Positions 2,754 through 31,480 of a stretch of 32,000 nucleotides of DNA are shown piece after piece; the first letter of the stretch is position 1, and the number at the start of each line of letters is the position of its first letter. A program made the translations under genes and the position numbers. Origin of the DNA: Candidatus Saccharimonadota bacterium (lineage in GTDB: Bacteria > Patescibacteriota > Saccharimonadia > Saccharimonadales > UBA4665); assembly GCA_016699935.1 (NCBI GenBank), contig CP064992.1, positions 810,001 through 842,000 on the forward strand. The letters run 5' to 3'. The notes beneath the pieces were generated by a model. It searched no databases. It worked only from the letters and a program-made list of their open reading frames with translations, and was not told the DNA's origin.

Positions 2754-4175
2754 TCATGATTCCTTCCGTTTGCTACGCGCCTTGTTTTTCACGATTTTGC
2801 GTTGGGTGGTGGAGCGTTCGGGTTTAGTCGGGCTGTTGCCGTGTTTGTGGCGGCCGTCTTTTTCGATAAACCAGAGTTGTATAGCGGTGCCGTCGAAGTT
2901 CCACTGCGTCCGCAAGTCGCGTTCCATGTAGCGTCTGTAGCTCCAATGGAGGAACTTGGTGTGGGCGCCGAATATTTTGAAGGCTGGTGTAGGATTGTCA
3001 TCTTCCTGAACCATATAATTGAGTTTTGGTGCACGGTTTTTGAGTCCGGCTGGCGGGTGCTTGCTAATCACGCTAGCGAGCCAGTTGTTGAGCTGACTGG
3101 TCGGGATACGTGTTTTGCGATGTTCGGCGACCTGGAGGGCGAGGTCGAAGATTTTGGTGACGTTTTGACCGGTGACACTGCTGGTAAAAACCAGTGGTGC
3201 CCATGCGACAAAATCAAAGGCGTGTGCAATTTGAGGCGCAAGCGCATCGCGCGTGAAGGCATCTTTGCCCTCTACGCTGTCCCATTTGCTTACAACGATG
3301 ATGAGCCCTTTACCTGCCTCTTTGATCATGCCGGCAATTTTTTGGTCGAGGGCGGTGCTTAGTTCGTTCACGTCTATGAGCAACAGGCAGACATCTGCTT
3401 GCTCGATAGCGCTTAATGTGCGGATGACACTGAAATGCTCGATACCTACGCCAATCTTACCAGGACGGCGAATACCAGCCGTATCCATGAGCTCGATTTC
3501 CTGGCCGATGTACTTTACGGTGGTGCGGTTAATATCGCGCGTGGTGCCTGCGCGGTCAGCAACAATTGCCTGCTGCTTTTTGGCAAGGGTATTGAAGAGC
3601 TGCGATTTACCCACATTCGGTCGTCCAAGGAGAGCGATGCGGAGCCGGCTACTATCTTCAACGAGCGTGGCGTGCGGAATCTGCGAGATGAGTGTATCGA
3701 GCAAGGTATCGATGCCCCGTTTTTGGGTGGCACTGGTCGGGAAGATCGGCTTGATACCTAGGCGTTCGAAGCCCTCGAGGTCGCCACCACGCGCTCGGTC
3801 GACTTTGTTGATGATGAGAAAAACGGGTTTTTTGCTCTTGAGGGCGAGCTTGGCGACGCGACGGTCTTCTTCGTTGACTGGCACATTTGCCTCCACGACG
3901 ACCCAGATGATATCGGCACTATCGGCCGCTTGGATGATTTGTTCCTGAATGGTGAACTCGAAATCATCGGTTGCATCTTTCATGCCAGCCGTGTCAACTA
4001 GCCAGAAATTATGATCTTTCCATTCGGCTTTGGCGGTGATGCTATCACGCGTGGTGCCGGCCTCAAGCGCCACGATGGCTTCGCGCCTGTCGAGGATGGC
4101 ATTGAACAGAGAGCTTTTGCCCACATTCGCCCGCCCTACGATGGCGACAATTGGTAGTTTTGTACTCATTACCAC
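2754..4175 (-). CDS. der: Ribosome-associated GTPase Der/EngA (tandem GTPase domains plus KH-like C-terminus)
   Basis: Intact 473-aa ORF with two P-loops (GRANVGKSSLFN and GRPNVGKSQLFN), DTAG motifs (LVDTAGM, LMDTAGI) and NKVD / SKWD G4 motifs. It ends in a basic C-terminal tail. Confidence 0.92.
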   Translation of the reverse strand: MVMSTKLPIVAIVGRANVGKSSLFNAILDRREAIVALEAGTTRDSITAKAEWKDHNFWLVDTAGMKDATDDFEFTIQEQIIQAADSADIIWVVVEANVPVNEEDRRVAKLALKSKKPVFLIINKVDRARGGDLEGFERLGIKPIFPTSATQKRGIDTLLDTLISQIPHATLVEDSSRLRIALLGRPNVGKSQLFNTLAKKQQAIVADRAGTTRDINRTTVKYIGQEIELMDTAGIRRPGKIGVGIEHFSVIRTLSAIEQADVCLLLIDVNELSTALDQKIAGMIKEAGKGLIIVVSKWDSVEGKDAFTRDALAPQIAHAFDFVAWAPLVFTSSVTGQNVTKIFDLALQVAEHRKTRIPTSQLNNWLASVISKHPPAGLKNRAPKLNYMVQEDDNPTPAFKIFGAHTKFLHWSYRRYMERDLRTQWNFDGTAIQLWFIEKDGRHKHGNSPTKPERSTTQRKIVKNKARSKRKES

Positions 4176-4236
4176 ACAGTATAACAGAGGTAAACTACCT
4201 TTGCAAAAAACTTATTCTGATGGTATTATTCACACT

Positions 4237-4922
4237 ATGTTTTCTCATCGTTTACCAGGTGTAGAGTCTCTTGGGCAAGTCAGTTTTATTAGCGGGGTGA
4301 GTCCCAATGCTTTCTCGGTAGATCCCGAAACAGGATTCTTTATACCGAATAATCAAGCTGAAGATGGCTTAAGAACGTACCTGGGATTTATTGGTCTGTA
4401 TGGAAGCGACGGCGGGTTTAATGGATTGAGTGAGGTGACGATGGCATGCTTCATTCAATTACCAAGCTAAACGACGTGCCTCAAGAGTTCCAGACAGTGA
4501 GCTGGCAAGGAAAAGGCGTTGGCGCTCGACTGTGGAATATGCCTGAGGGCCCAATGGGTATGCCACATCCACCGTACAATATCGGTGCCTTCACATAGCA
4601 TCCCAGAAGATGGGTTGCTGGATATGCGTGGGCTACAGACAACTCAGAAGTTTTCAAACAAATCCGCCGTCAGCTGGCGGTTGGGCTTGGTGCTTGCACC
4701 CTTGAAGATGTTACTGAGGAGGTTGGAGCTTCATATGGCAGCGTTGCGGCTGTGCTTCGCCGGATGCCACCTCAAGCCCTAATCCACATGCAGGAGCGGC
4801 TGCCACATGTTTCATGGCACCTGAGGCCATCATTTATGCTTGTTCGCGGCCCGAGCAGTGGCTTGAAGATGGTGGGACAAGTGTCTTTGCCCGGATTTCC
4901 GCATAAAGAACCAAAATCATAG
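4237..4922 (+). pseudogene. Disrupted hypothetical gene (one frameshift ~4440-4470 and one in-frame TAG ~4595-4597); C-terminal part has an HTH-like segment
   Basis: Three consecutive open segments can be joined: MFSHRLPGVESLGQ..GFNGLSEV / MLHSITKLNDVPQEFQTVSWQGKGVGARLWNMPEGPMGMPHPPYNIGAFT / (TAG) / HPRRWVAGYAWATDNSEVFKQIRRQLAVGLGACTLEDVTEEVGASYGSVAAVLRRMPPQALIHMQERL.., with a stop at 4920-4922. I recognise no family. Confidence 0.35.
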
Positions 4923-4931
4923 CGACGTTGC

Positions 4932-5103
4932 TTAACACAGGGTTTGAAGGTAGCTGGTTAACTCGCCGAGTCCTTGTGAGCCAAATTGGGTGCGGTTGAG
5001 GGTTGAGACGCTGCAGCCTAGAGCGGCAGATATTGCGGCGGGTTTGGCGGTTGCGGCCTGTGGGTGGGTGTACTTCGTAGGAGTGAGAGCTGTTCTCTTG
5101 GGG
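4932..5103 (-). pseudogene. Orphan 3'-end fragment of an RsuA/RluB-family pseudouridine synthase gene (copy A)
   Basis: On the minus strand, one frame reads ..SYEVHPPTGRNRQTRR and the adjacent frame reads AALGCSVSTLNRTQFGSQGLGEL..stop. Together these give the family C-terminal motif EGRNRQIRRM-AALGY-V--L-R--FG. About 75-80% nt identity to 9187-9290 and 10556-10640. There is no upstream catalytic domain. Confidence 0.6.
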
Positions 5104-5110
5104 TCATACT

Positions 5111-5194
5111 TTAACCTCAATTCGACATAAACGTACTACAAAGGCTCTACTCGCCCTCCACTTCTGAGGTCGACAGTTATGTCGAGCTCAGGCT
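5111..5194. repeat. Inverted-repeat arm Y-A (pairs with 10341-10508), contains a 9-bp hairpin
   Basis: TTAACCTCAATTCGACATAAACGTACTACAAAGGCTCTACTCGCCCTCCACTTCTGAGGTCGACAGTTATGTCGAGCTCAGGCT is the reverse complement (~90% identity) of 10341-10508 once an 83-nt insertion in the latter is removed. The hairpin GAGGTCGAC-N6-GTCGAGCTC lies just after the ABC transporter stop. Confidence 0.8.
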
Positions 5195-5216
5195 ACTAGA
5201 CCCGTTTATGATGTCT

Positions 5217-7362
5217 TTAGTGCAGACTTATGACGACTTCGTCATCTTCGTTCTTCCGCAGAAGCATCTTTAGGGTCACTGGGGTACCGCGTGAGGCTAC
5301 AGCGTACACTTGAGAGTCTGGTTCTTTATAGTCTTGGATTGCATTTTCCGTGACAACTGACTGCGCGATGGGCATGCTCTTCTGGGCTAAACCAATATGT
5401 TTGTCGATAACCTCTGGCACAATGTATTCTTGCTCATCCTGAATTTGTCGTTGTATCATCGCCTCATTTACCCCCTCAAGACGCTGTAGATATACATCCA
5501 GGCCGCCGAGCTCGTTGACGTTGTGGAGCTGGCCTTCCTCGAGCACGTATATTGTGTCCATGAGCGCAAGGAGTGATTTGCGGTGGGTCACCATGAGTAC
5601 TGTTTTGTCGCGGATAATTTCTTTCAGTGAGTCGCGGATATAGTTTTCACTCTTGGCATCGAGGGCGGCAGTCGGCTCATCGAGACACAGTATGGGTGCT
5701 TGCTTTATGAGCGATCGGGCTATCGCGACACGTTGGCGTTGCCCGCCGCTGAGGGAGCCACCATTTTCACCAGTGGGCGAGTTGATGCCCATGGGCATTT
5801 TTACGGCAAATTCGAGCACATTTGCAACCTGCACGGAGTATTTCACTTCCTCCACGCTGATCTGGCGGTAGACGTCGCCGTCGTATATGTTCTCGACAAT
5901 TGTTTGATCGAATAACTGCGGATTTTGACTGACCCAAGCGATTTTCCGGCGGAGCTGCTGTAACGAGATTGACTGTGTATCAATACTGTCTATCAGTACC
6001 CTGCCCGACTGCGGCGTGATAAAGAGTGGAGCAATTTCAGGATTGTGCTCTTGCCGCCTCCACTTGGGCCGATGATGGCAACTTTTTCATTTTGGTTGAT
6101 ATGGAGATTCAGGTTCTGGAAAACAACCTGTCCGTTGTACGAGTAGGTAACATTTTGTAGGTCTATAACCCCCGGATATTGGGTGGCAACATGCGGTCAG
6201 AGCGCAAATTTTCGATGTTCTCGTGGTCGCTCAGGACTTCGTAGACGCGACCGACGTCAATTATCTTTTGGTAGCGTGAGGTGATTTGCTTTACGAGGCT
6301 TTCAATAGGCCCCAGTAAGTACCCCATATATGTCATGAAAATGAGCAGCTCACCAAAGGTCATTTTGCCCTGCATCGCAGCAGTACCGCCAAAGTACATG
6401 ACTGTAGATGTCGCTAGAATAACCAAAAATGAATTAGTATTTGCGAGTAGGTTATTCCAGGTAAGACTCTTGCGTGTGGCACGGTATCCCTCGTGCCACA
6501 GCGTATCCACCTTCATGAGTTGCTTCTCTTCAAGTGTAAACGCTTGCACTGTCTCGGCGTTATCGACGGCTTCGTTTATGCTGGAAGCGGTCTTGCTGTT
6601 TATCTCAGTAAGTTGCTGGGCGTATATGCCCATATGAGGGGCAATCAAGCGCATAGTGAGGTACAAGAGTGGCATGAGCACTACCGACACTAACGTGAGT
6701 ACTGGATTGAAGCTGAACATGATGGCTAAAACACCGAGTATCATGATGATAGAACTGATGATAGATGCTGTTGTGCCGAGTACCAATTCTGATAGACTGT
6801 TGGTGACTACATTTTGGCGATAGACATAGTCCCCTTTTGCTAGGCGCTGTTGATGGTAGAGTGGCAGGTGCAAAATGTGACGGAATGATTCGGCTTTTAT
6901 GGAGCGATTGAGCCAAAATCCAATTTTGAGCAAGAGGACATCACTGAACCAGGAAAATCCTGCACCGACCAAAAAAAGTACTATAGACATGAGAGCGGTT
7001 ATAGCGATAAGCTTGGGTTGCCCTGTGAATTGTTCAAGCGGACCCGGTGCTGGGATTGTATTGAATGCCGAATCGGCCATAATTTTTATTGGCCACGGTT
7101 TCAGGAGCGAGACAGCCGCTTCGACTAGGCCAAGTGTTACCACAATCGCTATGGCTGGCCGGGCGCGTTTTTGGTACTTTTTAAGCCATGTTTTGAAATC
7201 AGTTCGGATGGTCTGACGACCATTTGTCTTGAGCCAGGCATCAACAGCTTGATTCACGAGATCTTTTGGCCAACCCAAACCGGTCAGTACATCTGCCAGC
7301 ATGTTTGGAGGGACACCACTAGCAACGGCCATATCAATGGCTTCGTATAGTTTTGGCATCAT
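5217..7362 (-). CDS. Fused ABC exporter (6-TM ABC_membrane domain plus ATPase), split into three ORFs by two frameshifts
   Basis: ORF 6163..7362 gives the N-terminal and transmembrane domains. The middle piece carries Walker A GPSGGGKSTILKLL. ORF 5217..5855 carries LSGGQRQRVAIARSLIKQAPILCLDEPTAALD (signature plus Walker B). The break at 6169-6173 is a 5-base C/G run that needs 6 bases (..PNIRGVIDLQNVTYSY..). The second break is near 6027-6035. Confidence 0.85.
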
Positions 7363-7586
7363 ACGGTAATTTTCCTCATGAGTCTTATGCTTACTTTAGT
7401 ATATAAGAGGATGTGGTGATTGACCAACAACATTGACGCATATACTTTTCCGCTGCTTATCAGTTTTATATATAGAACCGTTTATTAATAGATTTGACGA
7501 GGGATATGTTGCGTAGTATAGTCATATTGCATATGGTAAAAATATTGTATTAGAAAAATAAATAACTAATGAAGGAGGCGAGAGGC

Positions 7587-8947
7587 ATGGTGCGAGCAGC
7601 GGATGATGGCGGTAGTAGCAGCTCATATAGCTACTCTAATGATGTTGAAGAGAATCGATTGAAAAACCAAGCCGCTGTTGCACAGGCCGCAGCCGCACAG
7701 GCTGCAGCTGCTAAACAGCGCGAACAAGAGAGAGCTTTTGCAGCTAAGCAAGCCGCTGCTGCACAAGCCGCAGCCGCACAGGCTGCAGCTGCTAAACAGC
7801 GTCAACAAGAGAGAGCTTTTGCAGCTAAGCAAGCTGAGGAAGCCGCTGCTGCCGCGCAGCTTAACGCACAATACAATTCGATTGAAGATCGTAAGCTTGC
7901 GAACCAAGCAAGCATTGCTCAGAACGACCTTAACAACAGCCGCGAAGATCGTAAGCTTGCAAGTCAAGCGGCAGCCGCACAGGCTGCCCAGCAGGCTCAA
8001 ACCAATTCTCAATACAATTCGATTGAAGATCGTAAGCTTGCGAACCAAGCAAGCATTGCTCAGAACGACCTTAACAACAGCCGCGAAGATCGTAAGCTTG
8101 CAAGTCAAGCGGCAGCCGCACTGGGAAGGCTGCCCAGCAGCTCAAACCAATTCTCAATACAATTCGATTGAAGATCGTAAGCTTGCCAACCAAGCAAGCA
8201 TTGCTCAGAACGACCTTAACAACAGCCGCGAAGATCGTAAGCTTGCAAGTCAAGCGGCAGCCGCACAGGCTGCCCAGCAGGCTCAAACCAATTCTCAATA
8301 CAATTCGATTGAAGATCGTAAGCTTGCAGAACCAAGCAAGCATTGCTCGAACGACCTAACAACAGCCGCGAAGATCGTAAGCTTGCAAGTCAGCGGCAGC
8401 CGCACAGCATGGCATTGACTCACATGTTGAATTAGGTGATGCTTTAACGTCTAGCCCTGGTGATGTTCCTAACCCCGGTGGTGGCTCCAACCCCAGTTCT
8501 GACGACTCGCCCACTCCAGGTGATGTTGGTCGTGTGGAAACTGTCAGACCTGGTGACACGCTAAGCAAGATCGCGCTACGGCATGGTACTACCGTAGAGG
8601 AGCTAGTAAGATTGAATAATATTCAGAATCCAGATTTAATCTTTCCAGACCAAGCTATCAAATTGCCGAACTCTCTCGGTGGCGCTGCTCAGGCGCGGCT
8701 GACTCAGACGGAGTACAGGATTACGTTGTAGTAAAGGGTGATACATTAGTGAAATAGCACAACGCCGTGGTCTTGATTATCGGGAGATTGCAAAGGCAAA
8801 TAACATCGATAACCCAGACATTATTCGCAGTGGTCAGGTAATCAAACTACCGTCAAGTCCGGTTGGTGGTGGTATGGCTGGTGTTGGCGATGATAATGCT
8901 CTTGCCACTACGCCAATAAGTCTGACGAGTTTTACCAAGAATCCCTA
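7587..8947 (+). CDS. Ala/Gln-rich tandem-repeat protein with two C-terminal LysM domains; several frame breaks
   Basis: GGAGG RBS sits 8 nt before the ATG at 7587. Repeats are AAAQAAAAKQR(E/Q)QERAFAAKQ x2 and NSIEDRKLANQASIAQNDLNNSREDRKLASQAAAAQAAQQAQTNSQY x~4. LysM1 is VRPGDTLSKIALRHGTTVEELVRLNNIQNPDLIFPDQAIKLP. LysM2 is VVKGDTLVKIAQRRGLDYREIAKANNIDNPDIIRSGQVIKLP, reached only by adding one A at 8752-8754. Stop at 8945-8947. Confidence 0.7.
7671..7832 (+). repeat. 81-bp coding tandem repeat x2
   Basis: 7671-7751 and 7752-7832 are near-identical (gccgctg(t/c)tgcaca(g/a)gccgcagccgcacaggctgcagctgctaaacagcg..). Confidence 0.85.
7869..8400 (+). repeat. 141-bp coding tandem repeat, ~3.8 copies (units start at 7869, 8010, 8155, 8296)
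   Basis: The unit is caatacaattcgattgaagatcgtaagcttgc..caggctcaaaccaattct. Copy 2/3 junction carries a 5-nt insertion (tggga) and a 1-nt deletion. Copy 4 carries at least 4 single-base indels. Confidence 0.9.
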
Positions 8948-9019
8948 GCTGTATTGGCACGTAAACAATCTACTCGACTTACGTGGCAACTCCCATGACC
9001 CCAGTTTCGCTAGGAGTGT

Positions 9020-9300
9020 TTATATGTCCTCTATTCTGTCGTCAGTGGAGCTATCTTCTCTGATTCCTTCAAGATAAAGGAGCTGCTCAGGAATCGCTCC
9101 TGGACAAGGCTGGTGCAGGTGTGATTCCCGTGTCCGTCGAGTGTATGATGACGATATCTTTGGCTGTGCATAACTAAGATTATATGAGCCAAAGTGGGTG
9201 CGGTGGAGGGTGGTGACGTTGTAGCCGAGAGCGGCGAAATGTGCGGCGGATTTGACGGTTGCGGCCTGCGGCTTTGTGTACTTCCCCACGTCTCTTTGTT
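9020..9300 (-). pseudogene. Orphan 3'-end fragment of an RsuA/RluB-family pseudouridine synthase gene (copy B)
   Basis: On the minus strand, one frame reads AGRNRQIRR and the adjacent frame reads AALGYNVTTLHRTHFGSYNL... Core homology with copies A and C is at 9187-9290. The shared 12-mer cggttgcggcct is at 9256-9267. Confidence 0.55.
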
Positions 9301-9609
9301 GTAGGTTGGACGGAGTCCAGCTGGCCATAACAGCTATGCTATCACACCCGGTGTCGGCTTCGTGGGTGACAATCGCTTCGAGCCCATTGAGGACTGCTTA
9401 GATTACATCATCAGGCGGCCTCATAACATACTAAGCGGTTGAGTAACTGCAAGTGCTAAGACGGGCTTTGCGAATGCTACACCGGATACGAGAGCCACGT
9501 ATGTTTCGTCGGTCTACCTCTTGTGCAAATTCATGTATCATAAACTAATTGAGCTCGCTTGATAGGAAAAGGTTATTGGTGTATAACAAATGACCAGAAA
9601 GGTTATGAC

Positions 9610-9828
9610 ATGGATACTGAACAAGCTCCCGTCGTAGGTTCCCCTGCGGAAATATATGGTGTGCCTAGAGAAGCCGAAGACTTAAGAGGATTTGGTGGTT
9701 TGTGCATGGTTCTAGTGAGACGAGCCGCAGCCTTAGCTTATGGTGCTGCATTAGTCATTGCCGGGATACAGAAAAATTTGAATAGGACAATAACAGATAT
9801 ATTACGACGCGCTCCTTCGCTACATTGA
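9610..9828 (+). CDS. Hypothetical small protein
   Basis: Part of track ORF 9559..9828. The plausible start is MDTEQAPVVG at 9610. It has a C-terminal hydrophobic segment AAALAYGAALVIAGI. I recognise no family. Confidence 0.3.
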   Translation: MDTEQAPVVGSPAEIYGVPREAEDLRGFGGLCMVLVRRAAALAYGAALVIAGIQKNLNRTITDILRRAPSLH

Positions 9829-9951
9829 AAAATAGTGATACTTCTGCGCCATCCAGAAATGACAATAATACTATTAGGACGGGCTTGCTTCCCGTTTATT
9901 AATTATGGCATAAATCGTGTGTTCGATTTGGTCTTGTGCGCCAAGAAAGTA

Positions 9952-10332
9952 ATGTATAATAACCAGATGGATTTTAAAAAATACCCTAGACGTTCAACAA
10001 CATTACTATTGTTATTGGTGGTTGCTTTTGTTTGTTTTTCTATTATCGCGAATACGTTTGGAATGGCTGCACAATCCAAAGGAGCAACAGACGGCGGCGC
10101 TCCCTTTCTAGTCGCATTCTTTTTATTAGGGCCAATCCTGCTTATTTGTGTAATTGCTGGGCTTCTCATCTATAGCTCAATGCATAAAAAATCAACACCG
10201 AATGCTATGGCTGTACCTATGGTCAATAAGCAAACAGTACATGATAGCTCTGCGGTAACTACTACGGCAAGCAATCCAAATCAATTACCTCAGGTTAATC
10301 CTGAAGTGCCAGAACAAGTAAATCGTCAGTAG
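9952..10332 (+). CDS. Small two-TM membrane protein
   Basis: Part of track ORF 9835..10332; the likely start is MYNNQMDFKKYPRR at 9952. There are two hydrophobic helices (TLLLLLVVAFVCFSIIANTF and FLVAFFLLGPILLICVIAGLLIY). The Y-C hairpin follows directly. Confidence 0.45.
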   Translation: MYNNQMDFKKYPRRSTTLLLLLVVAFVCFSIIANTFGMAAQSKGATDGGAPFLVAFFLLGPILLICVIAGLLIYSSMHKKSTPNAMAVPMVNKQTVHDSSAVTTTASNPNQLPQVNPEVPEQVNRQ

Positions 10333-10340
10333 CTTAATTT

Positions 10341-10508
10341 AGCCTCGAGGTCGACATAACTGTCGACCTCAGAAGTGGAGGCTCGCCCTCCCCACTTTTG
10401 GCTGGAGTAAATCCAGCCAAAAAGTTCCCCACCCTAAAGGCACTGTCTCGCATCGCTGCTGACGGCGAGTAGAGCCTTTGTAGTATGCGTATGTCGAATT
10501 GAGGTTAA
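10341..10508. repeat. Inverted-repeat arm Y-C (pairs with 5111-5194), carrying an 83-nt nested insertion at 10382-10464
   Basis: It is the reverse complement of Y-A. It has a perfect hairpin GAGGTCGAC-ATAACT-GTCGACCTC at 10347-10370. Its outer end ..CGAATTGAGGTTAA overlaps the TAA stop (10505-10507) of the pseudouridine synthase gene. Confidence 0.8.
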
Positions 10509-11279
10509 TATATCAATTCGTACGAACCGCTTGGTAACCTTAGCACCGAGTATTTACCAAAGTGGGTTCGGTGGAGGGTGGTCACGGCGTAGCCGAGGCG
10601 GCAGATGTGCGGCGGATTGGCGGTTGCGGCCTTCGGTCATGGTGATTTGGTATGAGTCTGGGAATTCTTTTCTCCATTGATAAGGGAGGCTCGCCTCCCT
10701 CGGGCGTGGCCATCGCTTCTGCTCGGCCGCAGCCCGCTTCACTCGCTCGCTGTTCGCTCGCGCCGGTGCTACGCACCGGTTCGCAAATTCTCGTAACCGA
10801 GAATTTGCTCAAGCCATCCTCTAGCGTCACGCCGTGATCAGCAATGATTTGCTGATGGAGTGGCTGGAGGGGTTTGTCGAGGTGACTTCGTAGACCTTGG
10901 TTTTAGCATAACGAGGATGGGTCAGCTCATTTGCGAGATCGCCATCATCTGTTAGCAGTAGTAGACCAGAAGAATCTTTATCGAGTCGGCCGATGGGTTT
11001 TAGGTGATGGTACTCAACCGGTAAGAGGTCGTAGACGGTTGCGCTGCCCTGTCCGGCTCGAGAACAGACATAGCCTACTGGTTTGTTGAGCATGATGGTC
11101 GTGTGGTTTGTGCGCGGGGTTAGCTTCACCGCATCTGGGCAAACGGTATCTGTTGAGTTCACCTGGGATCCTGTTTCGGCAATCTGATCATTGAGCGTGA
11201 CGCGTCCGTCTGAAATTGCCTTGTCGGCTGCTCGCCGACTGAGTGATGACGCTGAGGCTATAAATTTGTTGAGACGCAT
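10505..11279 (-). CDS. RsuA/RluB-family pseudouridine synthase (S4 domain plus catalytic domain); about four frame breaks and a GC-rich in-frame insertion
   Basis: ORF 10827..11279 reads MRLNKFIASASSLSRRAADKAISDGRVTLN (S4 domain) ..KPVGYVCS..GRLDKDSSGLLLLTDDGDLANELTHPRY (catalytic Asp motif). Shifted frames continue as ..GVTLEDGLSKFSVTRI..(insertion)..KEFPDSYQITMTEGRNRQ..LGYAVTTLHRTHFGKYSVLRLPSGSYELIY, stop at 10505-10507. Confidence 0.8.
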
Positions 11280-11524
11280 GTATCTATGGTAGTCGTCTGC
11301 GACATCGGAAGCAATGTCTTTAGAGTGCTATGCTGTTGGGGTCTTCGCCTGCTGAAGGGGCTGTAGCGACAGGTTGTTGTGCTGGAGCTGCAGGTGCAGA
11401 TGTGGCGACGGTAGGCTGAGGCGTTCCGGGGCTGCCTCTTCTTTGGCTACTTCTTTGGCGAGAAGCTCGTCTAGGTTTGGTCCACTGGTAATATCGTTAA
11501 TTGGTCGTATGACCTTTTTGCCGG

Positions 11525-12112
11525 CTACGTTGACCTGGTCTGATTCATCTGTAGAAGGGGCCGACGGGTGGCAACGCTCTCGGGAGAGGCACTCTGAGGA
11601 ACGGTATCGGTAGGAAGAACTGGCGGCGATGCTGCTGCCGCATTTTCGACAACTGCTTCCGTGCTCGGACTGACCGAAGGCGTTACGTTTGTTGGTTCTT
11701 GAACTTCGGCGTTGGTTACGGTAGTTGTTTCTTCACCTGGGACTGTTTTTTGACTTGGCGGTAGAATCATAGCTGGCGGTTCATTGACGGCGGCAGCCAA
11801 ATCTTCAACTGCCTCAGTCAGGGCTGCTTCATTAGAGTCGGTTACACTTTGGCTGTCGGTGCTTTGGGGCAGCGGGCTTACTGAAGACGTGGTCTGATTA
11901 TTTGCAAAAGCAGCAATTTGAGACTCCACACTGGCCTCTTCTGCGGCAGAGGTTTGTTGTTCGGTGGCTGTGTGAGTGTCAGCGGCTACTATGTTTACGG
12001 GTACTTCGACTTGTGGGGATGATGGTGACACGGCAGCGGTTTGCTCAGGCTTGTCGACCGTTGCTCCTGCTGGTGTAGTTCCTGGTGTCTCCACCTCAGG
12101 GTTTGCAATCAT
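11525..12112 (-). CDS. Pro/Thr/Ala/Glu/Val-rich low-complexity protein or protein tail; reading frame uncertain
   Basis: Track ORF. The whole minus strand from 11290 to 12500 is open, in pieces, in similarly biased frames. The last segment ends ..GKKVIRPINDITSGPNLDELLAKE..EDPNSIAL, stop near 11320. It may be continuous with the receiver protein upstream. Confidence 0.3.
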   Translation of the reverse strand: MIANPEVETPGTTPAGATVDKPEQTAAVSPSSPQVEVPVNIVAADTHTATEQQTSAAEEASVESQIAAFANNQTTSSVSPLPQSTDSQSVTDSNEAALTEAVEDLAAAVNEPPAMILPPSQKTVPGEETTTVTNAEVQEPTNVTPSVSPSTEAVVENAAAASPPVLPTDTVPQSASPESVATRRPLLQMNQTRST

Positions 12113-12295
12113 GCCACTTTGATGGGTGACGATTGGTGTTGGTGTTGCTGCCGGTGGGGTGGCGTATTGGTTGCTTGCATCGTTGGAAGAACGAGGGGTC
12201 GGGGTCTTGCACGGTAGTGATAACTGGTTGCGCGACCTGTTGGCCGAGCGAAGTATCTATCGGTTGGGTGAACATGGGTGCTGGTAAAGGTACGT

Positions 12296-12916
12296 TTAGT
12301 GAGGTATCTGTGCCAGGTGCTGGGACGGCTGTTGGATATGGCTGCGTTGGCGTAGCAGGTGGGGAATGGGGTTTGGGTCAGCGTCTTGTGTGCTAACTGG
12401 TGCGATTGGTTGATCTACGGTTGGAGAAGCCGTAGACATACCGGCAGTAGCGGAAACAGCCGTTGCGGTAGCTGATGCTGTCGCAGTGGTTGTTTGGTCT
12501 GGATTAGGAGTAACCACCGTTGTACCATTCAGCAAATCACGAGCGCAGTTCACGATGTCCTCTAGGGTTACCTGAGATTTCACGAGGTATTTATCGGCTC
12601 CCAGTTTGTCGGCGCGCGCTTGGTCTTCAGCTTGTCCAAGGGCTGTGAGCATAATAACCTTCGTATTTGCGAGTTCTGGAGTAGTACGCAAGATATCGAG
12701 CATCTCGAAGCCGCTGATGCGTGGCATCATCACATCGGAAATGATGAGGTCGGGTCGGTGTTGCTTTGCAACAGATAGGGCTTCTTCGCCGTTCTGCGCG
12801 GCTACAATATCATAGCCCTCGGCGCTGAGCCGCGCCTGATAGATTTCCCTGAGGTTGTTGTCGTCTTCGACGAGAAGTAGTTTTGCCACGTTAGCCGCCT
12901 TTATGCGTGAAAACAC
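12296..12916 (-). CDS. Response regulator with receiver domain only, followed by a Thr/Ala/Pro-rich tail (no DNA-binding output domain seen)
   Basis: KLLLVEDDNNLREIYQARLSAEGYDIVAAQNGEEALSVAKQHRPDLIISDVMMPRISGFEMLDILR..KVIMLTALGQ..ADKYLVK is a canonical REC domain with the phospho-acceptor Asp in IISDVMMP. Confidence 0.8.
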   Translation of the reverse strand: MFSRIKAANVAKLLLVEDDNNLREIYQARLSAEGYDIVAAQNGEEALSVAKQHRPDLIISDVMMPRISGFEMLDILRTTPELANTKVIMLTALGQAEDQARADKLGADKYLVKSQVTLEDIVNCARDLLNGTTVVTPNPDQTTTATASATATAVSATAGMSTASPTVDQPIAPVSTQDADPNPIPHLLRQRSHIQQPSQHLAQIPH

Positions 12917-29568: not shown

Positions 29569-29979
29569 CTACTTCTCTGATTCGAGCTTTCTCAGGAATT
29601 CGACTAACTGGCGGGGCGTGATTTCGGCTTTCACGAGGTAGCCGTCCGCCTGATGTTCTATATCGGCGCGGACGTCGTCACGCTGTTCGAGGTTGGTCGT
29701 GATGATGATACGAGCGTGCATCTTAGGAGTTTCACGTGGGTCTCGAAGTGTCCGTAGCACCTCTATGCCAGTTATGTTTGGCACCATGAGGTCGAGGAGG
29801 ATGATGTCATAGGTGTCTGTTTGGGCAGCAGCGAGTCCTTTTTGACCGTCGAGCTGGATATCGACTTCGTAGCCAGCCTTCGTCAGTGCGCGCGCATAGA
29901 GCTCGCTGATGAAAAATTCGTCCTCTATGCAGAGAATTTTTTTGAGCTTGGGTGGTTGTGGGGTGGTGTCTGGTTCCAT
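29569..29979 (-). CDS. Single-domain (CheY-like) response regulator
   Basis: KKILCIEDEFFISELYARALTKAGYEVDIQLDGQKGLAAAQTDTYDIILLDLMVPNITGIEVLR..IIITTNL..ADGYLVK. It is 136 aa with no output domain. Confidence 0.82.
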   Translation of the reverse strand: MEPDTTPQPPKLKKILCIEDEFFISELYARALTKAGYEVDIQLDGQKGLAAAQTDTYDIILLDLMVPNITGIEVLRTLRDPRETPKMHARIIITTNLEQRDDVRADIEHQADGYLVKAEITPRQLVEFLRKLESEK

Positions 29980-29990
29980 AGGTTCCTATC

Positions 29991-31480
29991 TTAGTCCCGG
30001 TAGAGTGAGTGGTTTTTAATCCAGCCGTGGGCTCCCCGGGTTATGCCATTAGTATTGCCTGTTTTGCCTGACTCTGCAAGTGTAGCGTACGGCAAGACGG
30101 TAAACGTGAAGGTACTACCCTCGTCTACCTTGCTGCTGACCGATATTTGGCCGCCGTGTGCCTGAACAATGGCATGGCTAAGGTATAGGCCGAGCCCAGT
30201 GCCGCCTATCTGGGCGCGGTTGCGATGATTTCGGTAAAATTTTTCGAAAATGTGTGGCAAGATAGTTGTGTCTATGCCAAGGCCGAAGTCTTTGACACTG
30301 GTTTCGACCATACCGGCGGCATTGAGGGTGGCGTTAAGGTGAACTTCTTTGGTACCTTTGGAATATTTGATTGCATTGTCGAGCAGGTTGGCGACGACTT
30401 CATAAATGCTGTATCGGTCGACGCCAACGCTTGGTAGGTCTCGGGCGACGGTGGCTTTGATGGTGACACCGCGCACGCCAGCTCGAAGCCGCAAATCATT
30501 TATGACGGAACGGAGGACGTCTTCCCATTTCTCTTCTTTGAGCTGGAGTGTGAGCTGGTTGTCCTCTATTTTGGCAACGTTTAAGATGTTGTCGACGAAT
30601 GCGGCGAGCTGCTGAGCACTGGCATCCATTTTTTCATAAAATCTTTCAATTCGGCACTTAGGCTGGGTCCAAGCTCTTCATCGAATACCTCTATATATCC
30701 GCGAAGAAGCGTTAGAGGTGTGCGTAGCTCGTGGACGGTCAGCGCTACAAAGCTCATTGCCTGGTCGTCTTGGCTGTAGACCTCAGTGTGGTCAAAAAGT
30801 ATGAGGAGCGTTTCGTAGCCCATAGGGTTGTCACTGTTGAAATGTGCGGCGAGGTCGAACTGTTTTGTGTCTTTTTGGCCTGGCAGACCAATCCGGACGC
30901 GCTCCCAGCGCATACTGGCAGTCACGCTCGATCGCCGAACAGTTTGTAGCCAGCTGTGTAAGGTTTGATCGTCGGAAAACGCCATATCGAGAGCGGTGTA
31001 GAGGTTCTTGGTCTCAAGCTCGTCGACCGGCCGTGCGAAATATTGTATGGCGGCTTCATTGGTGTAAACGATATTGTCGTCTTTGTCCAGTACGACCACA
31101 GGTAATGGCAGTGAGTTTGCGAGAAAATTGGCGTGAATATCTTGGATTTTCTTAGCATTTGTCTTTTCGACGTCACTTACAACACTCGCCATCTGATAGA
31201 CATGATTGACAAGGTTGGAAACGAGCTCGCGACCGTACTGCAAGCTATCGATGTTTGGTGATGGCTGGGGTTCGCCGTGCGGTGCAATGTGTTGGACGGC
31301 CTGCCAGATCATGTGGATAGGTTCGGCACTTGCATGGCTGGCGAAGCGAGCAAACAGGACACTGCCACATACCGAAAGAACATACATTGCGATAAGGATG
31401 GTGGTCGTTGATACAGTATCTCTGGTGGCAAGTAACCAGCCTGTTCCAATGACTAATGCCTGAAACACAAACATAATCAA
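29991..31480 (-). CDS. Sensor histidine kinase (TM, PAS-like, HisKA, HATPase_c), one frameshift at a T/A run 30629-30634
   Basis: ORF 30581..31480 ends in the H-box FVALTVHELRTPLTLLRGYIEVF and ..LKDFMKK. ORF 29991..30629 reads MDASAQQLAAFVDNILNVAKIE..NLLDNAIKYS..VKDFGLGI..GGTGLGLYLSHAIVQAHGG. Reading A7 instead of A6 joins them. The start may be at 31527 (MDFFSKYRRQL..) if a T5 run is really T6. Confidence 0.82.

Follow-up and report, generated by a model that had tools for sequence, protein, structure and literature searches.

A hypervariable slot between rsuA and der in a Saccharibacteria chromosome, with stranded rsuA gene ends and IS982-derived miniature elements

How does the 3′ end of one conserved gene come to stand three times, close together and in the same orientation, in a bacterial chromosome? 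The question is raised by a stretch of 32,000 nucleotides (nt) from the Candidatus Saccharimonadota assembly GCA_016699935.1 (contig CP064992.1, positions 810,001 to 842,000), which we refer to below as the window. The window is a piece of Saccharibacteria (TM7) chromosome, and all loci related to its der gene come from Candidatus Saccharibacteria or Saccharimonadales genomes. On the minus strand it carries, in this order, a histidine kinase gene, a response regulator gene, a pseudouridine synthase gene of the rsuA/rluB type (rsuA in the following), the segment under study, der and pth. A preliminary description, made from the sequence alone, had noticed three diverged rsuA ends and a pair of inverted repeats bounding 5.4 kb of the segment, and had proposed serial insertion into the 3′ end of the gene. 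We find that the slot between rsuA and der holds three nested modules, each consisting of an rsuA 3′ end and its cargo. The process that formed them was probably repeated recombination with DNA from related lineages, anchored in rsuA and proceeding without an integrase, which left successive gene ends stranded.

That the gene end is present three times in one orientation, as had been proposed, was confirmed with a nucleotide profile (nhmmer) built from the rsuA 3′ block of 75 distinct relatives. The profile matched the window exactly three times, always on the minus strand, and the matches were designated copy B (9270-9177, E=5e-20), copy C (10648-10545, E=1.3e-18) and copy A (5059-4976, E=1.3e-11). 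Local alignments gave identities of 84% over 101 columns for A and B, 77% over 106 for A and C, and 88% over 83 for B and C, while a repeat search paired A (4977-5076) with B (9185-9284) at 82% and also returned three-copy repeat families. The gene and its three ends are located as follows.

10505-11279, minus strand: rsuA/rluB-type pseudouridine synthase gene, with PF01479 and PF00849 on its N-terminal open reading frame (ORF), ending in copy C
10545-10648, minus strand: 3′ block of copy C, continuous with the gene body and completing the working gene
9132-9290, minus strand: copy B, a stranded rsuA 3′ end that is still followed by its native DNA, matched by nhmmer
4932-5110, minus strand: copy A, the more decayed stranded rsuA 3′ end, starting near codon 220 at the boundary of a miniature element

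The S4 and PseudoU_synth_2 domains and the C-terminal G-R-N-R-Q block of the rsuA/rluB type are all present. The reconstructed protein shares 64-69% identity with pseudouridine synthases from Saccharibacteria that are 218-278 amino acids (aa) long, and it is similar over its full length to more than 7000 family members (best E 8e-96). In this clade the synthase carries a low-complexity, variable insert of approximately 35-55 aa before the G-R-N-R-Q block (window positions ~10665-10790), and the proteins with the insert have 255-278 aa versus 218-230 aa in other Saccharibacteria.

Copy C closes the live gene. Its stop codon (10505-10507, read directly from the sequence) lies inside the terminal TTAA of the right-hand inverted repeat, in agreement with the earlier placing of the start of this repeat at the stop of copy C. 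The preliminary description had also taken C for the end of the real gene and A and B for orphan fragments; this stands, except that frame corrections are needed in all three copies as assembled, C included. Copy B has one extra base relative to the relatives. Its identity to the end of rsuA in CP065016.1 (locus L001) is 87-90%, or 87% with the downstream sequence included, and the two stay collinear past the stop codon. Copy A has a stop codon where it begins and a frameshift that lies outside homopolymer runs, and its tblastn matches fall in two frames. Identity to the orthologues is 77-82% for A and 87-90% for B and C. Copies B and A are earlier gene ends, stranded and decaying, of which A is the oldest; A being the most diverged and B less so, the divergence fits an order of A first, then B, then C.

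The same slot was followed in relatives, where rsuA is succeeded by der in 80 of the 80 cases with both genes visible, at distances of 79-7230 bp (median 818 bp). The contents of the 69 gaps longer than 300 bp fall into 54 mutually unalignable groups, which makes the slot hypervariable although its neighbours are fixed. In CP065016.1, an intact rsuA is followed by the B-LysM-ABC part of the window in the same order and orientation, with no duplication (LysM and ABC denote a LysM repeat protein gene and an ATP-binding cassette exporter gene). Locus L013 reads rsuA-LysM-ABC-...-der and L012 reads ABC-X-der, X being a further cargo gene; in L001, L013 and L012 alike, LysM-ABC cargo occupies the rsuA-der locus without flanking repeats. 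The oldest part of the window, A-X-der, is matched by the arrangement of L010, in which rsuA and X are convergent and approximately 15 bp apart, versus 10 bp in the window. The comparison with relatives that had been suggested earlier thus upholds rsuA and der as constant neighbours, but shows the cargo at home between them without the repeats. It also supports the idea of serial arrivals that brought surrogate gene ends, as copy B is joined to downstream DNA of the CP065016.1 type and copy A to X-der of the L010 type. Stranded rsuA ends recur elsewhere: clearly in L011 (18-620, an independent short-read assembly), where a 146-aa coiled-coil cargo gene is followed by a bodyless rsuA end ('...YTVTTLHRTHFG...') and then by der, and possibly in L047 (9305-9360), where a weak, decayed candidate stands between two cargo genes (nhmmer E=0.16).

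The newest of the three modules comprises copy C, the right-hand miniature element, two ORFs without relatives and a scrap of the der 5′ region; the middle one comprises copy B, the LysM gene and the ABC exporter gene; and the oldest one copy A, gene X and der. Their parts, apart from the gene ends and the miniature elements, are listed here.

9955-10332, plus strand: predicted small membrane protein of 126 aa (counted from the ATG), taken from the ORF list, newest module
9559-9828, plus strand: ORF of 89 aa, newest module
9316-9399, minus strand: internal der fragment, codons ~23-50, stranded directly upstream of copy B
7569-8945, plus strand: LysM repeat protein gene, split into several frames as assembled; the L001 orthologue has PF01476
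5217-7362, minus strand: ABC exporter (membrane domain and ATPase; PF00664, PF00005), with two 1-nt deletions as assembled
4234-4922, plus strand: gene X, which converges on copy A and, as assembled, contains one frameshift and one in-frame stop
2754-4169, minus strand: der (EngA GTPase), intact, the downstream border of the variable slot

ORF and domain reading returned the same cargo as listed earlier for the interval between the repeats, and likewise terminal genes that read outward into them. The der fragment was recognised with a der 5′ profile of 82 relatives (nhmmer E=1.5e-9) and by tblastn (50% over 32 aa), and its DNA is 70% identical to positions 4039-4105 of the intact gene, the product of which aligns with its counterparts in L001 and L002 from end to end at 89% identity and without indels. 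Among 5.8 billion proteins, the 126-aa ORF matched nothing but itself, and the 89-aa ORF, compared with Pfam alone, matched no family. Gene X is the orthologue of a 238-aa gene situated between rsuA and der in L010; tblastx matches were found in L010, L082, L012 and L024, the best database match is 49% identical, and no Pfam or NCBIfam family was matched. A decayed DUF3800 gene, such as that of L002, was considered for 4175-4932 and gave no match, the region being that of gene X. As neither the 126-aa ORF nor X has close relatives in the homologue searches, no intermediate arrangement was recovered. The LysM gene contains nested tandem repeats (7569-8420; units of 81 nt and of 141-145 nt, the latter with 36-nt sub-repeats), which encode Ala/Gln-rich segments and differ in number from those of the CP065016.1 orthologue.

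Within the cargo, the positions 6590-8960, which cover the LysM gene and 780 bp at the 5′ end of the ABC gene, are approximately 97% identical to CP065016.1, with approximately 76% on either side (sliding identity). At the protein level, the N-terminal 399 aa of the exporter are 98.5% identical to those of L001 and the C-terminal part 76%. The der and histidine kinase genes are 78-80% identical to their counterparts in CP065016.1. The step in identity from ~76% to ~97% and back to ~76% is direct evidence for recent recombination between lineages along this 2.4-kb tract of the locus.

The inverted repeats, read previously as the termini of an inserted element, have another origin. A mirror repeat does bound the interval 5111-10508, as described, but its arms are not both of ~85 bp: they measure ~85 and ~170 bp, the right one being longer by about 80 bases (10382-10460). 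Arms 5106-5158 and 10461-10513 are 89% complementary, and arms 5155-5189 and 10347-10381 are 97% complementary. The window contains the 19-mer TTAACCTCAATTCGACATA at two places, 5111 (+) and 10508 (-), where 0.01 occurrences would be expected by chance. An exact scan of metagenome contigs for this 19-mer returned five loci, in four of which (L089-L092) an element of ~1040 bp is bounded on both sides by the 19-mer as its terminal inverted repeat, and the single ORF of that element encodes an IS982-family transposase (NF033520 at 238 bits, cut-off 130; PF13612 match). The terminal repeats of this IS982-type family read (T)TAACCTCA(A/G)(T/C)TCGACATAAG. The outer 19-20 nt of each arm match the terminal repeats of the IS982-family elements; facing outward at 5111 (+) and 10508 (-), they show 0 and 1 mismatch, respectively, to the insertion-sequence consensus. 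Judged by these termini, the arms are not the ends of an island but two copies of one miniature element, which is non-autonomous and derives from an IS982-family insertion sequence. We designate them MITE-R and MITE-L, for miniature inverted-repeat transposable element.

10339-10508, minus strand: MITE-R, long form, the outer terminal repeat of which, TTAACCTCAATTCGACATA(C), abuts the rsuA stop
5111-5196, plus strand: MITE-L, short form (internal deletion), with its outer terminal repeat abutting copy A

In both copies the inner terminal repeat is degenerate (15/19). It lies at 10339-10359 in MITE-R, 7 nt past the stop of the 126-aa ORF, and at 5177-5196 in MITE-L, 20 nt past the ABC stop. Outer and inner repeats pair as 10341-10359 with 10489-10507 (span 167 bp) and as 5111-5130 with 5177-5195 (span 85 bp); a permissive, fuzzy search for such terminal-repeat pairs gave mostly noise. 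Of further copies, which had been suggested as a thing to look for, one was found in L060 (5863-6037, 12 nt upstream of rsuA) and none in the 32-kb window beyond the two arms. The L060 copy is of the long form, and the short left-hand copy is therefore a deletion derivative. Related IS982 elements occupy the same slot in L001, between the LysM and ABC genes, and in L009, where the copy lies 1.2 kb upstream of der and is interrupted by the contig break (L009 1-130). A possible TACT duplication around MITE-L appears only if the inner end is placed 3 nt shorter, and neither MITE-R nor the four full elements showed anything consistent. Since the miniature elements fold strongly (z=-6.6 and -4.7) and directly follow convergent stop codons, they probably act as hairpin terminators too. 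They resemble known IS982-derived miniature elements in their size of 85-175 bp, the want of a transposase, matching terminal repeats, strong folding, intergenic placement by stop codons and occurrence in at least two genomes. They differ from typical ones in that only three copies were seen, in having no clear target duplication and a degenerate inner repeat, and in internal sequence unrelated to the parent.

The repeat arms were also considered as fragments of transfer-messenger RNA (tmRNA) on account of a TTCGAC motif and the tail CTCGCCCTCCA, but ARAGORN and Rfam returned nothing for the window and the metagenome loci, and the loci suspected as tmRNA are IS982 elements. A further shared word, GGAGGCTCGCC(C)TCC, is found in the extra segment of MITE-R (10377-10391) and in the variable insert of rsuA (10685-10699), that is, twice versus 0.06 expected. 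The rsuA occurrence of GGAGGCTCGCC lies within coding sequence that aligns to the matching part of the L010 rsuA, and the sharing may be coincidental.

How the three ends came to be stranded we infer as follows. DNA of related Saccharibacteria, probably taken up by natural competence, would have recombined into the locus repeatedly. Homology in the conserved rsuA body would have anchored every event, while the far joint, at or just before the resident 3′ end, would have been illegitimate or have fallen in a repeat element. In this way, each event would have placed a complete donor 3′ end together with its cargo beside the gene body, and the old end would have been displaced downstream. The miniature elements occupy two of the junction or terminator spaces and may have supplied one of the joints. 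Besides the invariant gene neighbourhood, the collinearity with relatives, the tract of raised identity, the recurrence of stranded ends and the order of divergence, the der fragment stranded beside copy B speaks for this account. Genes for competence and pili, which are widespread in Patescibacteria, have been proposed as mediators of DNA uptake (PMC12455944). Recombination with an anchor of homology on one side only has been documented in other bacteria: homology-facilitated illegitimate recombination is described upon natural transformation of Acinetobacter, Streptococcus pneumoniae and Pseudomonas stutzeri, and upon conjugation in E. coli (PMC3240628). A homologous anchor combined with a non-homologous joint would insert foreign DNA beside the anchor, which fits the placement of a donor end and cargo beside the rsuA body. 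The documented events are small and usually delete recipient DNA, and the process is not known from Saccharibacteria.

Several points weigh against this explanation. The joints and any microhomology at them are unreadable without a close donor, recipient or intermediate, the closest der being 89% identical in amino acids. The starts of copies A and B lie within about 10 codons of each other (~220-230), which could indicate a more specific process and would be a coincidence if illegitimate joints were random, although the unalignable, clade-specific insert just upstream of these starts may hide a longer homology. The der scrap is devoid of codons 1-22 and of the promoter, and at least one extra event is thus required. 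Moreover, one-sided recombination of this kind is known from few competent bacteria, and not from Saccharibacteria.

A dedicated route that equally needs no integrase can be imagined, in which circular cassettes carrying an rsuA 3′ block of ~100-180 bp, possibly excised through IS982 ends, would enter by a single crossover. It would explain the recurrence of stranded ends, the near-identical start codons of A and B and the exact abutment of a miniature-element end on copy A; we nevertheless regard it as unlikely.

Site-specific islands, whose attachment site would duplicate the end of rsuA and which would integrate serially at a fixed core through a recombinase since lost or acting in trans, are improbable as well. 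Genomic islands that bring a replacement for the 3′ end of their target gene are familiar from tRNA and tmRNA genes, where tyrosine integrases act, and from SCCmec at rlmH (orfX), where Ccr serine recombinases do. The preliminary description had drawn this analogy, and some of it fits: the gene ends are direct repeats of one orientation, nested beside the gene, the nearest copy completes it, and a serial tandem arrangement is possible in such islands. The similar start codons of A and B and the further stranded ends, in L011 and possibly in L047, would also be accounted for. The analogy fails on other grounds. The segment codes for the ABC exporter, the LysM protein and small ORFs, and neither there nor elsewhere in the 32-kb window was an integrase or recombinase found, in keeping with the earlier remark that neither an integrase nor a transposase is present. 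There is no fixed, identical core either. The 12-mer CGGTTGCGGCC is indeed exact in all three copies, as had been stated, but the weight then placed on it is not justified: the only invariant run among the copies, GGCCGCAACCG, encodes G-R-N-R, and an 11-nt core of the 12-mer is found in 39 of the 75 orthologues and is missing from the stranded end of L011. Because the 12-mer consists of the G-R-N-R codons and recurs in so many orthologues, its sequence reads as ordinary coding conservation. In addition, the cargo is ordinary at this locus, LysM-ABC being present in relatives without flanking repeats and X lying likewise between rsuA and der in L010, and a der fragment is stranded too, which would be unexpected from a site-specific event in rsuA.

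The miniature elements raise the possibility of a composite transposon, in which an IS982 transposase supplied in trans moved the whole 5.4-kb block into rsuA as a unit. Both outer termini are perfect or near-perfect, outward-facing IS982-type repeats, and IS982-family elements do reside at this locus in L001 and L009. This scenario is decidedly unlikely, as the positions 5111 and 10508 are not surrounded by a target-site duplication (the flanks are ...CATACT and TATATC...), removal of the block leaves not an intact gene but copy C followed in tandem by copy A, a pair seen in 0 of 80 relatives, relatives without the elements have the cargo at this very locus, and no transposase is encoded in the window. 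An inversion of the segment between the two elements was likewise rejected, the orientation of the LysM and ABC genes relative to rsuA being the same as in relatives.

We give even less credit to an assembly artefact, by which a noisy long-read metagenome assembly would have joined alternative strain versions of the slot in tandem. What speaks for it is the quality of the sequence, which has many 1-nt deletions versus relatives, mostly by homopolymers and even in the essential pth: four sites in rsuA, two in the ABC gene and two in pth. Together with a source contig of 1.23 Mb, such deletions are typical of error-prone long reads assembled from a mixed community. The genes broken as assembled include the following.

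2031-2664: pth
5217-7362: ABC exporter gene
10505-11279: rsuA
11323-12889: response regulator gene

The LysM gene and gene X are broken as well, whereas der and the histidine kinase gene are without frame-disrupting indels. Every frame-breaking indel measured (in rsuA, the ABC gene and pth) is a single-base deletion, and since pth is essential, the apparent frameshifts are probably uncorrected errors of the long-read assembly and do not mark pseudogenes. A misassembly that strings strain variants together is a different matter, and is unlikely because the copies diverge by 12-23%, which is too high for false joins based on overlaps, and because a stranded end is clearly present in the independent short-read assembly L011, and possibly in another, L047. 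Nor does the joint between the der scrap and copy B consist of a homologous overlap.

Alternatively, the rsuA end might have been duplicated locally and in tandem in this lineage, after which the copies diverged and cargo was inserted between them. This would suit three copies in one orientation and close together, but is very improbable, given that copy B is nearer to the CP065016.1 orthologue (90%) than to A (84%) or C (88%) and retains the downstream non-coding sequence and gene order of CP065016.1, while A retains the downstream gene of L010.

Away from the slot, a second histidine kinase/response regulator pair is encoded at 29617-30802; it is a paralogue of the one upstream of rsuA, with which it shares 33-34% aa identity.

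Recombination anchored in rsuA would place the locus among the hotspots of gene flux that lie between conserved core genes of bacterial chromosomes, many of which contain no recognisable mobile-element genes and are attributed to recombination in their flanks. The invariant neighbours rsuA and der, the variable content between them, the inter-lineage recombination inside the slot and the lack of an integrase are all shared with such hotspots. The difference is that the DNA arriving at this locus extends over the end of the upstream core gene, and that old 3′ ends and a der scrap are kept as nested scars, which is unusual for such hotspots. We conclude that the locus is a clear and well-preserved, but fairly ordinary, exchange hotspot flanked by core genes and colonised by miniature transposons.

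For the biology of these organisms, the locus is a readable record of gene swapping by very small, host-dependent bacteria with few mobile-element genes. Its scars, namely the stranded ends, the der scrap and the 97%-identical conversion tract, date successive refills of the slot from related lineages. The analysis also defines an IS982-type family of miniature elements in Saccharibacteria, and it carries a practical warning that apparent pseudogenes in such a sequence are most likely errors of assembly. If stranded gene ends prove to be common, they could serve as markers by which gene-transfer events are counted and ordered in genomes that are available only from metagenomes.

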